Source of the DNA: a virus
Lineage: Duplodnaviria; Heunggongvirae; Uroviricota; Caudoviricetes
DNA length: 35,499 bases
IMG/VR virus record: IMGVR_UViG_2541047894_000004
Reading direction: 5' to 3' (one strand)
Below, one piece after another: positions 4,781 to 8,888 of this stretch. A program made the position numbers and the translations under genes. The notes under the pieces are model-generated. The model saw nothing but the letters and a program-made list of their open reading frames with translations, had not been told where the DNA came from and searched no databases. Each line of letters opens with the position of its first letter. Within the stretch, counting starts at the first letter, position 1.

Positions 4781-4805
4781 TTTTGTGTGTCAACACAAAA
4801 TGTGT
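4781..4805. promoter_or_regulatory. Operator-like overlapping palindromes TTTTGTGT-GTCA-ACACAAAA-TGTGT downstream of racR
   Basis: Perfect inverted repeats read directly from the sequence; same ACACA/TGTGT half-site as in the racR-ydaS intergenic region. Confidence 0.45.
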
Positions 4806-4837
4806 TTTTATAGTGGCGTGTCATATGATGATGGTAC

Positions 4838-4861
4838 AAAAAAAGCCCGCCGATAGCGGGC
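4838..4861 (-). terminator. Rho-independent terminator downstream of racR
   Basis: On the minus strand: GCCCGC-tatcg-GCGGGC stem-loop followed by a U7 tract, 32 nt after the racR stop. Confidence 0.75.
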
Positions 4862-4892
4862 TGATTGGCATATTACTGTGATAGCAAGATCA

Positions 4893-5312
4893 TTACTCCG
4901 GTGGGGGGGTATCTTTAAGCCTGCCCCTCAAATATTTTTCTACATACTCGTCGATTTCTTTTAGCCGGACTTCAAATAGCTCAATCATTCGTTGTTGTTC
5001 TGAGCCCGGTAGCTGGTTAAACAACTCAAGAAGTTTTCGTTGGGATTCATTTAACCACAATTCAGAAGAGTCTTTTTCCCCAAAGAGGAGCTCAGGAGGA
5101 GATATGCCCAGTGCCTTTCCCAGGACGACAGCATCATGCACTCCAACATTTCTGCTGCCCGCCTCATAGTTACCTATACGCGATTGCGTCCATCCGCAGA
5201 TTTCAGCAAGTTTTCCTTGAGATAAACCAAGCTTCTGCCTGCGCTCTTTAAGACGCATTGCAATTTTGTCATTGAGCCTACTAGCGGCAATTTTTTCGTT
5301 TTCTTTTTCCAT
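4893..5312 (-). CDS. racR: CI-like HTH (XRE family) prophage repressor, RacR-like, 139 aa
   Basis: HTH-like stretch LGLSQGKLAEICGWTQSRIGNYEAG; divergent from a cro-like gene; RBS AAGGA upstream. Confidence 0.82.
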   Translation of the reverse strand: MEKENEKIAASRLNDKIAMRLKERRQKLGLSQGKLAEICGWTQSRIGNYEAGSRNVGVHDAVVLGKALGISPPELLFGEKDSSELWLNESQRKLLELFNQLPGSEQQRMIELFEVRLKEIDEYVEKYLRGRLKDTPPPE

Positions 5313-5323
5313 TTCGTCCTTGT

Positions 5324-5390
5324 ATCACGAATCGTGATTTATATAAAACACAAAATAGCTTGACCGTAAAACACAAGATGTGTTTAAAAT
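5324..5390. promoter_or_regulatory. Divergent promoter/operator region between racR and ydaS
   Basis: Palindromes ATCACGA-A-TCGTGAT (5324-5338) and AAACACA-AGA-TGTGTTT (5369-5385) in the 96-bp gap between divergent HTH genes. Confidence 0.5.
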
Positions 5391-5408
5391 TGTCGTCGGA
5401 GGTTTTTA

Positions 5409-5651
5409 ATGAACAAAATTTCAACATATCGAAAACAACTTGGTCTGTCTCAAAGACAACTCGCTGTTCAGCTAGGGTGGATACAAAGCCGACTAGCAAA
5501 TTACGAAGCAAACTTTCGTACCCCTGGGCTAGAGGAGTGCAGAAAAATTGTTTCCACCCTTAATCGGCTTGGTGCTCATTGTGGACTTGACGATGTATTC
5601 CCCCCAGACGGTAAGCATAGCGAAAACAGCATAGGAGCGGTTGATTCATGA
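5409..5651 (+). CDS. ydaS: Cro-like HTH protein (YdaS-like), 80 aa
   Basis: GGAGG RBS; HTH-like LGLSQRQLAVQLGWIQSRLANYEA; divergent from the repressor. Confidence 0.78.
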   Translation: MNKISTYRKQLGLSQRQLAVQLGWIQSRLANYEANFRTPGLEECRKIVSTLNRLGAHCGLDDVFPPDGKHSENSIGAVDS

Positions 5652-6070
5652 AAATCAGGCATGAGCACATCGAATCAGTGTTGTTAGCCCTGGCAGCCGA
5701 AAAAGGGCAGGCGTGGGTTGCTAACGCAATTACTGAAGAATATCTGCGCCAGGGGGGCGGCGAATTGCCCCTGGTACCAGGCAAGGACTGGAACAATCAG
5801 CAGAATATCTATCACCGTTGGTTGAAAGGTGAAACGAAAGCGCAAAGGGAAAAAATTCAGAAACTGATCCCTGCGGTTCTGGCAATTCTTCCGCGCGAGC
5901 TGCGTCACCGACTCTGCATCTTCGATACCCTGGAACGCCGTGCATTACTGGCGGCGCAGGAAGCGTTGAGTACGGCAATTGATGCGCATGATGATGCAGT
6001 CCAGGCCGTTTACCGTAAAGCATATTTCAGCGGCGGTGGGTCGCCCGGCGATTCTGTCGTAGTGCATTGA
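5648..6070 (+). CDS. ydaT: YdaT-like (CII-like) protein, 140 aa
   Basis: Start overlaps the ydaS stop (ATGA); length matches recalled YdaT; position equivalent to lambda cII. Confidence 0.75.
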   Translation: MKIRHEHIESVLLALAAEKGQAWVANAITEEYLRQGGGELPLVPGKDWNNQQNIYHRWLKGETKAQREKIQKLIPAVLAILPRELRHRLCIFDTLERRALLAAQEALSTAIDAHDDAVQAVYRKAYFSGGGSPGDSVVVH

Positions 6071-6114
6071 TTGAAATTAATCGTGCCGGACTGTTTTGTT
6101 CGGTATCAGTTAAA

Positions 6115-6558
6115 TGTAACGCTTACAGCGTTACAAGGTGAAAACAATATGGCTTCAAACTGGATAAAGCTCGAGGTTATTACGCCGGATAAGCCGGAAA
6201 TATTCAGGCTTGCTGAGATTCTGAATATTGATCCAGATGCCGCATTAGGGAAAGTCATTCGCTTCTGGGCATGGGCGGATCAACAAATGATAGACGGTAA
6301 CGCAGAGTGTAACGCTCGCGGCGTTACAAAAAGTGCAATAGATCGCATCACTTTTATGGCTGGTTTTGCTGATGCGTTAATTCAGGTTGGATGGCTGGTC
6401 GAAAATAACGGTGGGCTTTCTCTACCTAACTTTGAACGTCATAACGGAAAAAGCTCTAAAAAACGGGCGATTACAAACGAGAGGGTTACAAAAATACGCG
6501 AACTGAAACGAAAAGGTAACGCTGCCAGCGTTACACAAACGGATCAAAAAGCGTTACC
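6115..6558. repeat. Ori-like array of GTAACGC/GCGTTAC palindromes and half-sites with phased A-tracts
   Basis: Palindromes TGTAACGCT-TAC-AGCGTTACA (6115-6135), TGTAACGC-TCGCG-GCGTTACA (6308-6328), GTAACGCTG-C-CAGCGTTAC (6516-6534); half-sites at 6470, 6484, 6551; A-tracts 6440-6515; GAGGAA x3 at 6560-6577. Confidence 0.5.
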
Positions 6559-6937
6559 AGAGGAAGAGGAAGAGGAAGATATAAATACTGATCTCCCCCT
6601 AAATCCCCCTCGCCAAAAACGAGCATCTAAAAAATTCGAGCCGGAGGCTATTGAGTTGCCCGATTGGTTGCCGGAAACACTCTGGCATGAGTGGGTCCGG
6701 TTCAGGCAGGCATTGCGAAAACCGATTCGAACGGAGCAGGGCGCTAACGGGGCGATACGGGAACTGGAAAAATTCCGCCAGCAGGGTTTTACCCCTGAGC
6801 AGGTGATTCGACATAGCATCGCCAATGAATACCAGGGCTTGTTCGCGCCGAAAGGTGTTCGGCCTGAGACGTTGCTCAGACAGGTTAACACTGTCTCGTT
6901 GCCGGACAGTGCGATCCCGCCAGGCTTCAGGGGGTAA
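6149..6937 (+). CDS. ydaU: Replication initiator O-like protein (YdaU-like); start taken at the ATG at 6149 (AAGGTG RBS)
   Basis: Sits just upstream of the DnaC-like gene; carries internal palindromic repeats and an acidic EEEEEED linker as in lambda O; the ORF-track start at 6071 is TTG. Confidence 0.75.
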   Translation: MASNWIKLEVITPDKPEIFRLAEILNIDPDAALGKVIRFWAWADQQMIDGNAECNARGVTKSAIDRITFMAGFADALIQVGWLVENNGGLSLPNFERHNGKSSKKRAITNERVTKIRELKRKGNAASVTQTDQKALPEEEEEEDINTDLPLNPPRQKRASKKFEPEAIELPDWLPETLWHEWVRFRQALRKPIRTEQGANGAIRELEKFRQQGFTPEQVIRHSIANEYQGLFAPKGVRPETLLRQVNTVSLPDSAIPPGFRG

Positions 6938-6943
6938 CGAACC

Positions 6944-7690
6944 ATGAAAAATATTGCGACAGGCGGCGTTCTGGAACGCATCCGCCGACTGACCCCGCCA
7001 CATGTAACCGCCCCATTCAGAACGGTAGCGGAGTGGCGCGAGTGGCAACTTGCTGAAGGCCAGAAACGTAGCGAGGAGATCAACCGCCTGAATCGCCAGT
7101 TGCGGGTGGAAAAAATTCTGAATCGCTCAGGCATCCAGCCGTTGCACCGTAAATGCTCGTTTGCGAATTACCAGGTGCAGAACGACGGTCAGCGATACGC
7201 GTTGAGCCAGGCGAAATCTATCGCTGATGAACTGATGACCGGGTGTACAAATTTTGCGTTCAGCGGAAAACCTGGTACCGGAAAAAACCATCTGGCGGCG
7301 GCTATCGGGAATCGCCTGCTGAAAGATGGCCAGACAGTGATTGTGGTTACCGTGGCTGATGTCATGAGTGCTCTACACGCCAGCTATGACGACGGGCAAT
7401 CAGGCGAAAAATTTTTGCGGGAACTGTGCCAAGTGGATCTGCTGGTTCTTGATGAAATTGGCATTCAGCGCGAGACAAAAAACGAGCAGGTGGTGCTGCA
7501 CCAGATTGTTGATCGCCGGACAGCGTCGATGCGCAGCGTGGGGATACTGACAAACCTGAACTATGAGGCCATGAAAACATTGCTCGGCGAGCGGATTATG
7601 GATCGCATGACCATGAACGGCGGGCGATGGGTGAATTTTAACTGGGAGAGCTGGCGTCCGAATGTCGTCCAGCCAGGAATTGCGAAGTGA
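6944..7690 (+). CDS. ydaV: DnaC-like helicase loader, AAA+ ATPase (YdaV-like)
   Basis: Walker [11 protein letters not shown], Walker [10 protein letters not shown]; follows the O-like gene. Confidence 0.9.
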
Positions 7691-7712
7691 TTTTTACCGG
7701 GAGGAAATTTTA

Positions 7713-8474
7713 ATGGAAACCGTTTTTGATGCACTGAAAGCAATGGGAAAAGCCACGTCGGTAGAACTGGCTGCGCGACTTGATATCAGTCGTGAAGAAG
7801 TGCTGAATGAGCTGTGGGAACTTAAAAAGGCTGGCTTCGTTGATAAAAGCGTATACACCTGGCGTGTGGCTGATAACAACGTTCAGCAGGAACAGCCAGA
7901 GCAGGCAGAACTGCCGGAAGAAACCACCACGGCAACAGTAGCGAAAATCTCAGAGTGCGATTTAACCGCGACGATTGAACAACGTGGCCCACAAACGGCG
8001 GATGAACTGGCTACGTTTTTCGGCACCACATCACGCAAAGTGGCTTCAACGCTGGCAATGGCAATCAGCAAAGGCCGTCTGATTCGCGTTAATCAGAACG
8101 GTAAATTTCGTTACTGCATGCCGGGCGATGATTTACCAGCAGAGCCGAAAGCTGCATCGGTAACGGAAACTGATGGTAAAGCCTTTCCTCAACCAGCAGG
8201 TGTTGCGTTACCGGGACAGGAAGCTGCAACACAGGAAGATATTAAAACAGAAACTGTGGCGGACATTGTGCAGTCGTTGCCATCGTTTACCGAAACGCGA
8301 GCGGATGACCTCGTTCTGCCATCGCTGCATATGGCAAACCGCGAACTGCGTCGGGCGAAAAATCATGTCCAGAAGTGGGAGCGTGTCTGCGCCGCGCTGC
8401 GGGAGCTGAACAAGCACCGGGATATTGTTCGACAGATTACTGATTCTTCTCGCTGTGTTGCATCGGAAAAGTGA
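7713..8474 (+). CDS. Hypothetical nin-region protein, 253 aa, with two winged-helix-like repeats
   Basis: GGGAGG RBS before the ATG at 7713; internal repeat [19 protein letters not shown] / [19 protein letters not shown]; function unknown. Confidence 0.6.
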
Positions 8475-8489
8475 TTGCCGGAGGCGCTT

Positions 8490-8888
8490 ATGGCAAAAGT
8501 ATTTACACAAGAAGAGCGGGAAAAAATCAAGGGACAGGTTGTTGAGCTAGTACGCCGGAGTGGGCGCGAGACGTTACGGCAACTGGAAGCCAAGACAGGT
8601 GCGACAAGATATCTGATGAGCGTTCTCGCCAGAGAGCTGGTTGCCAGTGGCGATGTATATAACTCTGGCTACGGGTTATTCCCGTCTGAACAGGCTCGTA
8701 AGGACTGGCAAAACGCCCGCAAAAAACTCTCGAGGGCAAAGGTGAAGAAAACATCTGTGGTTGATCCGGACCTTATCTGGTCATTACCTGACGGAGAAAT
8801 ACGTCGTTATGACAGGCACCAAAACATAATTTGCTGTGAGTGCCGGAAGAGCGAAGTTATGCAGCGCATACTGGCATTTTATCAGTGA
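8490..8888 (+). CDS. Hypothetical protein, 132 aa
   Basis: GGAGG RBS; ORF with protein-like composition immediately downstream of the previous gene; function unknown. Confidence 0.55.
   Translation: MAKVFTQEEREKIKGQVVELVRRSGRETLRQLEAKTGATRYLMSVLARELVASGDVYNSGYGLFPSEQARKDWQNARKKLSRAKVKKTSVVDPDLIWSLPDGEIRRYDRHQNIICCECRKSEVMQRILAFYQ

Follow-up and report, generated by a model that had tools for sequence, protein, structure and literature searches.

Where does a Rac-like prophage begin to replicate its DNA? We addressed this question in a stretch of 35,499 nucleotides from a tailed phage (Caudoviricetes; IMG/VR record IMGVR_UViG_2541047894_000004), which is referred to here, at its full length, as the window. 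On its plus strand at 6149..6937 it carries a gene annotated as ‘ydaU-like’, whose product of 262 amino acids (start MASNWIK) matches PHROG 2509, ‘replication initiation protein’, with an E-value of 3e-89 and is called the initiator below; the start codon, ATG 6149, was set by alignment of homologues. An origin inside the initiator gene is the textbook arrangement of phage lambda, and a preliminary description of this DNA had proposed a lambdoid-style origin of that kind. Conservation, co-variation with the N-terminal domain of the initiator, and a position and geometry like those of lambda now speak for this proposal, whereas two of its parts, a region of phased A-tracts and the identity of the gene with ydaU and of the origin with oriJ, had to be given up. 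From the sequence comparisons described here, the region within and just upstream of the initiator gene is probably the replication origin of this prophage, and the dyads that it contains are most likely binding sites of the initiator protein encoded there.

The heptamer GTAACGC is present in 13 copies in the window compared with 3.0 expected, and 8 of the 13 copies are located within 6116–6557. The inverted arrangement GTAACGC-N5-GCGTTAC is found exactly three times (at 6116, 6309 and 6516), with 193 and 207 bp from palindrome to palindrome, whereas 0.07 occurrences are expected and none of 100 shuffles contained three or more. All three copies are perfect, although they had been described as near-perfect palindromes at 6115, 6308 and 6516. 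Palindrome 1 (TGTAACGC-TTACA-GCGTTACA, 6115–6135) is non-coding and is located in the 78-nt leader between the stop codon of ydaT (6070) and the initiator ATG. It adjoins the Shine-Dalgarno (SD) sequence AAGGTG (6135–6140), with which it shares 1 nt, and its end is 13 nt away from ATG 6149, hence the suggested overlap with the ribosome-binding site is correct but that with the start codon is not. Palindrome 2 (TGTAACGC-TCGCG-GCGTTACA, 6308–6328) encodes C-N-A-R-G-V-T, which are residues 54–60 in a low-confidence loop of the N-terminal domain, and palindrome 3 (GTAACGC-TGCCA-GCGTTAC, 6516–6534) encodes G-N-A-A-S-V-T in the linker coding region. Moreover, single half-sites accompany the palindromes. 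A perfect direct copy of GTAACGC, which had been overlooked, is present on the plus strand at 6297–6303, 12 nt 5′ of palindrome 2; a degenerate copy, GGGTTAC, with one mismatch to GCGTTAC, is present on the minus strand at 6483–6489; and a perfect GCGTTAC on the minus strand at 6551–6557, 23 nt 3′ of the right arm of palindrome 3, encodes A-L-(P). Thus the extra half-site reported at 6551 is confirmed and the one reported at 6484 is the one-mismatch copy, but the one reported at 6470 has about three mismatches, is not conserved and was dropped.

The A-rich DNA in this region does not have the properties that were ascribed to it. The A-tracts were said to be phased at 11–13 bp, but their centres are 10.5, 15.5, 16, 15 and 5.5 bp apart, and AA/TT periodicity, which would have indicated a bendable or curved region, is not significant (uncorrected P ∼0.05–0.6). 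The A runs are AAA lysine codons of a conserved KSSKKRA motif. With a GC content of 0.40–0.45 the region is moderately AT-rich, and it has a strong skew of A over T. A terminator scan called palindrome 3 (6516–6534), together with CTTTTCGTTT on the minus strand, terminator-like, which is probably a mere side effect of the dyad and the A runs of the lysine codons.

To follow the dyads through evolution we used 19 loci that were selected by protein from 185,579 species genomes and that come from Shigella, Rouxiella, Mixta, Erwinia, Serratia, Winslowiella, Yersinia, Rahnella, Pantoea, Pectobacterium and Samsonia. In these loci, dyads are located at three positions of the gene, at about −31 to −43, +149 to +161 and +358 to +413. 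The leader dyad is present in ∼11 of the 19 lineages and absent from ∼8, and both intragenic dyads are present in nearly all. Among homologues with 59–97% amino-acid identity, which also include Escherichia, Klebsiella and Enterobacter, no change is seen in the arms while the 5-nt spacers vary freely, and in phage homologues that are ∼68–70% identical in DNA (TL-2011b, ZX5, BUCT554 and a Klebsiella phage) palindromes 2 and 3 are perfect with different spacers. Palindrome 2 is perfect in ∼19 of 23 protein-selected relatives. The half-site at +149 (window 6297–6303) recurs in most relatives, and at +335, where the window has its degenerate copy (6483–6489), five loci have a perfect GCGTTAC (L009, L012, L014, L016 and L018).

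This conservation is at the level of DNA and extends to positions where the protein is indifferent. Third-codon positions inside the arms are 0.89–1.0 conserved compared with ∼0.5 elsewhere, the synonymous positions of CAA AAA GCG TTA CCA are 0.83–1.0 conserved, and those of the longer stretch CAA AAA GCG TTA CCA GAG GAA GAG GAA are near-invariant (0.69–1.0, mostly 1.0). The residue at the edge of the arm switches between G, C and S while the DNA arm is unchanged. Moreover, the reading frame through palindrome 3 is not the same everywhere: the initiator gene of the window translates it as G-N-A-A-S-V-T, whereas genes of the TL-2011b type are shifted by one frame and give V-T-P-T-A-L. Many proteins of the family have a NAxSVT motif and a linker that is acidic or basic, and the repeats might in principle be by-products of such protein constraint (the G-N-A-x-S-V-T motif, the acidic linker) or of chance. 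We regard this as hardly credible, because palindrome 1 is non-coding, because the arms persist through changes of frame and of flanking residues with their synonymous sites fixed, because chance would give the 0.07 palindromes of the shuffle expectation, and because the homopurine tract described below keeps its purines and its arginine codons while its peptide varies.

Beside the dyads, extra half-sites follow each other with a 12-nt period and in variable copy number, which gives xNAx peptide repeats. These 12-nt repeats expand and contract between lineages (L012 and L015, +368 to +427), and thus the repeats of the presumed origin also write variable xNAx tetrapeptide repeats into the initiator, for example SNAKGNAKSNAHSVT and GNAEGNAEGNAKVT (proteins P0165, P0137 and P0094). 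The right half-site of dyad 2 encodes S/G-V-T just ahead of the predicted helix 61–68. Because dyad 2 is located inside the coding sequence of the N-terminal domain, the gene of this DNA-binding domain contains the domain's own presumed target.

The same alignments bear on the idea that the palindromes work as RNA or single-stranded DNA (ssDNA) hairpins, in mRNA stability, attenuation, RNase III processing or as a primosome assembly site. Each palindrome does fold as ssDNA (about −9 to −10 kcal/mol; z-scores −2.2 to −5.1), and palindrome 3 is terminator-like on the minus strand. However, within a subfamily the stems are invariant, compensatory changes are missing and the loops vary, which is the signature of sequence-specific recognition, and hairpins would leave unexplained the unpaired satellite half-sites in direct orientation 11–13 nt from the dyads. 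We therefore consider a hairpin function very unlikely.

If the sequence of the dyad is recognized, the question is by which protein. More distant N-terminal domains have two clusters at equivalent positions but with other half-sites. A metagenome-assembled genome (MAG) whose domain is 47% identical to that of the window has GTTGCGC-N5-GCGCAAC with a third half-site, position +430, and the Ralstonia phage Raharianne (40%) has GTAGACG-N6-CGTCTAC at +154 and +369. GTCCGC-N7-GCGGAC is found in Salmonella epsilon15, Pseudomonas phiPSA1 and Ralstonia RPZH6 (32–34%) at +66 and at +342 to +365, and TGTCACA-N7-TGTGACA in a Vibrio phage (∼50%) at +358, while Xanthomonas CP2 and Pseudomonas PAN70 and VW-6S (44–49%) keep the TAACGC dyad at +149/150. 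The typical cluster is an array of half-sites in the order direct-direct-inverted-inverted, 11–13 nt apart, and nearly all half-site copies of a 3.3-kb locus fall within −150 to +520. Phages of three host genera thus have the GTCCGC half-site in common, whereas two Pseudomonas phages differ from each other in half-site, as do two Ralstonia phages. In these comparisons the half-site tracks the type of N-terminal domain and not the host. Furthermore, the genes upstream vary among the loci (ydaT, methylase, KilAC, Roi or repressor), as do those downstream (genes for DnaC-like, DnaB-like, lambda-P-like, RuvC and DUF1064 proteins) and the C-terminal domains, so that the N-terminal domain is the sole constant among loci with differing flanks and C-terminal domains.

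Two counts indicate how closely the sites accompany this domain. Of 39 non-redundant family loci, 28 contain two or more separated perfect palindromes that share a 6-nt arm within −150 to +520, whereas none of 75 control regions of equal size does (Fisher P ∼5e-18). Lambda, run as a positive control, gave no signal in this strict perfect-arm test, because the lambda iterons are imperfect dyads, which means that the test is conservative. Conversely, 108 of the 120 IMG/VR stretches that contain TGTAACGC-N5-GCGTTACA hold a gene with a family N-terminal domain, and in all 108 the palindrome is located at −150 to +520 of that gene, with peaks at −34, +138 to +164 and +342 to +389. A family N-terminal domain gene was not detectable in the other 12 palindrome-bearing stretches, one of which (L228) is a Rac-like copy cut by the contig end. 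In several gene-less stretches extra GTAACGC half-sites are present beside the palindrome (L311 5109, L291 2999, L227 762, L239 5614 and L252 10150), and the palindrome may there serve other, undetected initiators or intergenic origins.

These data also weigh on the proposal that a host factor or another phage regulator (the repressor, Cro/YdaS or YdaT), rather than the initiator, binds the sites. The module is located directly 3′ of the immunity genes, and several helix-turn-helix (HTH) proteins are encoded close by, which would suit such a regulator. Nevertheless, the half-site follows the N-terminal domain across Salmonella, Pseudomonas and Ralstonia phages and changes between phages of one genus, and the neighbouring regulators vary among loci with the same dyads. 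Moreover, no DnaA box was found in 5379–8654 with up to one mismatch allowed, and the number of such boxes over the whole window is at chance level. Binding by a protein other than the initiator is thus a poor explanation, to which we assign little more weight than to the by-product explanation.

A second conserved element is present beside the sites. The preliminary description had noted a threefold GAGGAA repeat and taken it for a repeat encoding an acidic linker only. The repeat is real, but it sits inside a 21-nt all-purine run, AGAGGAAGAGGAAGAGGAAGA or (GAGGAA)x3, at 6559..6579 on the plus strand, which encodes EEEEEE, and it is the homopurine tract that is conserved. In 32 of 39 family loci the interval from +373 to +456 contains a run of 15 or more purines, compared with 0 of 152 control segments. 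Most of the family has one identical 23-nt tract, AGAGAAGAGAAGAGAAGAGAAGA, in loci with a GC content of 0.49–0.65, and this (AGAGA)4–5 tract is identical over 23 nt across Salmonella, Pseudomonas, Ralstonia and Xanthomonas phages; Rac-like genes have (GAGGAA)3–4 in its place. Arginine codons in the tract are AGA in 76 of 76 cases, compared with 43 of 470 (9%) elsewhere in the same genes, and the codons that flank the tract vary synonymously. Furthermore, the peptide encoded by the tract varies (EEEEEE, EEKRREE or EGEGEG) while the purine content is kept. The exclusive use of AGA and the varying peptide with constant purines indicate that the constraint acts on the nucleic acid. Conservation and co-variation show that selection acts at the nucleotide level on both cis elements, the dyads and the purine tract, and that both are tied to the N-terminal domain of the same gene.

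The tract is followed by DNA of low stability. The region directly after the last site consists of the purine run at 6559–6579 and TATAAATA, has a GC content of ∼0.40–0.45 and contains the least stable 30-bp duplex of the gene, which is located after the last half-site at 6564..6594 and comprises the end of the purine tract and TATAAATACTGATCT. In a nearest-neighbour stability profile, 6564–6594 belongs to the least stable 3.4% of the window, and we regard it as the candidate unwinding region. We considered whether the tract is conserved as H-DNA, which depends on a mirror repeat, and rejected this idea, because inspection shows mirror symmetry in (AGAGA)n but not in the (GAGGAA)3 of the window. 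The junction between the N- and C-terminal modules of the initiator coincides with the homopurine tract. A literature search on the tract, the dyad and the EEKRREE motif returned nothing relevant.

The most serious alternative is that the dyads are operators only, through which the initiator represses or roadblocks its own operon, and that the true origin is elsewhere. In iteron plasmids (pPS10, F and P1), inverted repeats are the established form of autorepression by Rep dimers, and palindrome 1 is located in the leader and adjoins the SD sequence. In addition, co-variation and conservation indicate cognate binding but do not by themselves separate an operator from an origin. On the other hand, a consensus scan, the only promoter search made, found no σ70-like promoter at or near any dyad. 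The leader dyad is missing in ∼8 of 19 lineages, whereas the two intragenic clusters are near-universal, and the extra half-sites with their one-turn spacing and variable copy number resemble an iteron array. Finally, autorepression leaves unexplained the homopurine tract, which is constrained as nucleotide sequence and follows the last cluster in a lambda-like position. We therefore regard a purely regulatory role of the dyads as unlikely, though clearly less so than hairpins or foreign regulators, and prefer an origin within and just upstream of the initiator gene.

At such an origin, dimers or oligomers of the winged-helix-like N-terminal domain would bind the three clusters (leader, +149 to +180 and +368 to +409). 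The bound assembly would then adjoin the tract at 6559–6579 and the short AT-rich stretch behind it, and the duplex would open there. Subsequently the DnaT-like C-terminal domain and the DnaC-like YdaV could bring host DnaB to the opened DNA. Through palindrome 1 in the leader, the initiator may in addition lower its own expression; such autoregulation is possible as an accessory function, because the leader dyad is present in only ∼11 of 19 lineages and no promoter-like site overlaps it.

Several observations count against an origin at this place. The literature searched contains no report of binding or of origin activity for any member of the family. The layout of the sites is unlike that of classical origins, with single dyads ∼190–210 bp apart rather than at least four tandem iterons, and in many plasmids the inverted repeats to which Rep dimers bind serve as operators, not origins. 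The flank is only moderately AT-rich, and its least stable 30-mer is within the top 3.4% of the window, which is not extreme. Moreover, the Rac prophage of K-12, for which oriJ is named in the literature, has a different N-terminal domain and lacks these sites. A broader and more tentative suggestion, which we think may well prove wrong, is that the locus represents an undescribed and very widespread class of phage origins, which unite dyads of swappable specificity with a homopurine element that is universal and overrides codon usage. On this view the tract would be the actual element of opening or loading. It could offer the initiator a single-strand binding site of periodic structure, or it could form a stable purine-RNA:DNA hybrid (R-loop) with the transcript of the initiator gene and so pass the displaced strand on to the DnaT-like domain.

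The initiator itself is a mosaic of a novel N-terminal domain, an acidic linker and a DnaT-like C-terminal domain, and it has no Pfam match even at E ≤1. The N-terminal domain (6149..6448, plus strand) is predicted to be a winged-helix-like DNA-binding domain, with a fold of helices (16–25, 29–48, 61–68 and 73–80) and a β-hairpin (84–91); its structural matches are weak and mostly to winged-helix DNA binders. The C-terminal domain (aa 170–262; 6656..6934, plus strand) shows homology to the ssDNA-binding domain at the C-terminus of E. coli DnaT. A phmmer comparison with the PDB gave 2ru8 with E 1e-4 over aa 170–262 and 9zbt with E 3e-4, and the tail NTVSLPDSAIPPGFRG equals that of DnaT, NTVSEPDSQIPPGFRG, at 14 of 16 residues, both ending in IPPGFRG. 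The NCBIfam DnaT match is weak (E 0.006, 16.3 bits compared with a family cut-off of 201), and Pfam DnaT is matched by the epsilon15 relative but not by the initiator of the window. The gene is not ydaU, as had been assumed: K-12-type YdaU shares only residues 139–262 (124 residues, 81% identity), and its own N-terminus is DUF1376 (PF07120), which it matches at 9e-26 and the initiator of the window does not match.

In an exhaustive search of representatives, the family of the N-terminal domain comprised 6621 clusters (clustered at 50% identity) at E <1e-3, whose members carry no annotation beyond ‘hypothetical’, ‘primosomal protein I’ or ‘replication initiation protein’. Family N-terminal domains are fused to very different C-terminal domains, some with the DnaT-like IPPGFRG tail and others unrelated (epsilon15 L109 1501–2178; L002; L023), and the genes that follow encode DnaC-like, DnaB-like or lambda-P-like partners, or no loader. 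Among plasmid replicons the initiator was found in two only, both of them phage-sized ‘plasmids’.

The gene order around the initiator is as follows. An HTH repressor gene is located at 4893–5312 on the minus strand, and between it and ydaT (5648–6070), which is 5′ of the initiator gene, there is an HTH gene at 5409–5651. The AT-rich DNA that separates the divergent repressor and HTH genes contains a direct repeat, TAAAACACAA(A/G)AT, at 5344–5356 and 5367–5379, and these two copies are probably immunity operators. The initiator gene is followed on the same strand by ydaV (6944..7690), which encodes a DnaC-like helicase loader (NCBIfam PRK12377, E 5e-153; DnaC, E 2e-90; Pfam IstB_IS21), presumed to be the partner of the initiator, and 3′ of ydaV by ydaW (DUF1627). 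The two proteins are consistent with an initiator–loader pair. Over positions 4800–7700 the window shares 100% identity with a prophage in the chromosome of E. coli DLL7555, and its identity with APEC O1 is 99.8%. Related DNA was found in 1991 of 5426 complete E. coli genomes, 123 of which have at least 80% of the module, and the same initiator is present at 95% nucleotide identity in induced Escherichia phages (ON470614 and others).

The origin of this large initiator family, which is found in phages of many Proteobacteria, appears to be undescribed. The present comparison supplies exact cis elements for it, namely dyads with at least five specificity classes and an almost invariant homopurine tract, and this tract was unexpected and is the most interesting lead. 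These elements might be used to predict the replication compatibility of co-resident prophages and to annotate origins in thousands of phage genomes. They might also provide orthogonal initiator/origin pairs and a system for studying how a DnaT-type primosome is targeted to a fixed DNA site. In addition, genes called ‘Rac ydaU’, and hence oriJ, are not all one element.

The closest parallel in organization is lambda. In both cases the origin would be located inside the initiator open reading frame, at the boundary between an N-terminal DNA-binding and a C-terminal loader-recruiting part, the site specificity is modular with the N-terminal domain, and the loader gene is immediately downstream. 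The four annotated lambda iterons are located at nt +349 to +433 of the O gene, compared with +368 to +409 for the last cluster of the window, and they are dyads of the TCCCTC-N5-GAGGGA type, so that arms of 6–7 nt and a spacer of 5 nt are found in both. The lambda iterons are followed by the homopurine AAAAGAAAAAAGAAAAGA (an 18-nt run) and the dyads of the window by the tract at +411 to +431, in both cases within ∼20 nt. Nevertheless, lambda O is unrelated to the initiator of the window (BLASTP E 1.3), and PF04492 (Phage_rep_O) is matched by O at 6e-36 but not by the initiator. Lambda has four tandem iterons (at least four, ∼20–24 bp apart, in this class), whereas the window has two to three clusters ∼200 bp apart, one of them in the leader, each consisting of one full dyad and one to two half-sites. 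The purine tract of lambda is A-rich, whereas that of the window family is (GAGGAA)3 or (AGAGA)n with ∼40% GC, and the partner of O is P, whereas the initiator has a DnaT-like C-terminal domain and a DnaC-like partner.

The Rac prophage of K-12 shares with the window the order repressor, HTH gene, ydaT, initiator, ydaV and ydaW, a C-terminal domain of 81% identity and a homologous ydaV. However, GTAACGC/GCGTTAC heptamers are absent from MG1655 1419000–1424000, the 5 kb around ydaU, and the K-12 gene lacks the long purine run of the window. Because K-12 Rac has a different N-terminal domain and no heptamers, a comparison with oriJ cannot validate the sites of the window; an origin feature is not annotated in MG1655 Rac, and the literature searched gave no description of oriJ at the sequence level. 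The K-12-type DUF1376 YdaU gene has a repeat of its own, (A/G)TGTTCAAACA, at +149, +393, +426 and +437 and, in inverted orientation, at +452 (L005 2357–2463; L115, which is MG1655 1419000–1424000, 2267–2577). Within the gene, these repeats occupy positions that correspond to those of the GTAACGC sites in the window, despite unrelated N-terminal domains, and they may be the cognate sites of K-12 Rac, perhaps of oriJ.

With the Rep proteins of iteron plasmids (RepA, π and RepE) the initiator may share the winged-helix-type fold that is predicted for it, and repeated, presumably cognate sites accompany its gene as they do the rep gene; its inverted-repeat sites could likewise autoregulate. The operator of a plasmid Rep is an inverted repeat over the rep promoter, whereas the promoter scan placed no such promoter at the dyads. 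The DnaA-trios form, with DnaA boxes, the basal unwinding system of bacteria, and by analogy only, the window also has initiator sites followed by a short-period repeat on one strand, AGAGA x4–5 in most of the family and GAGGAA x3 here. In contrast to DnaA, the initiator is not an AAA+ protein, the repeat unit is 5–6 nt instead of 3, and single-strand binding is conjectural. Finally, E. coli DnaT is homologous in the C-terminal 93 residues and likewise has a DnaC-like loader as partner. DnaT belongs to the PriA replication-restart primosome and has no sequence-specific origin-binding domain, whereas in the window a DnaT-like domain is fused to a putative one, and this fusion would direct primosome-type loading to a fixed site.

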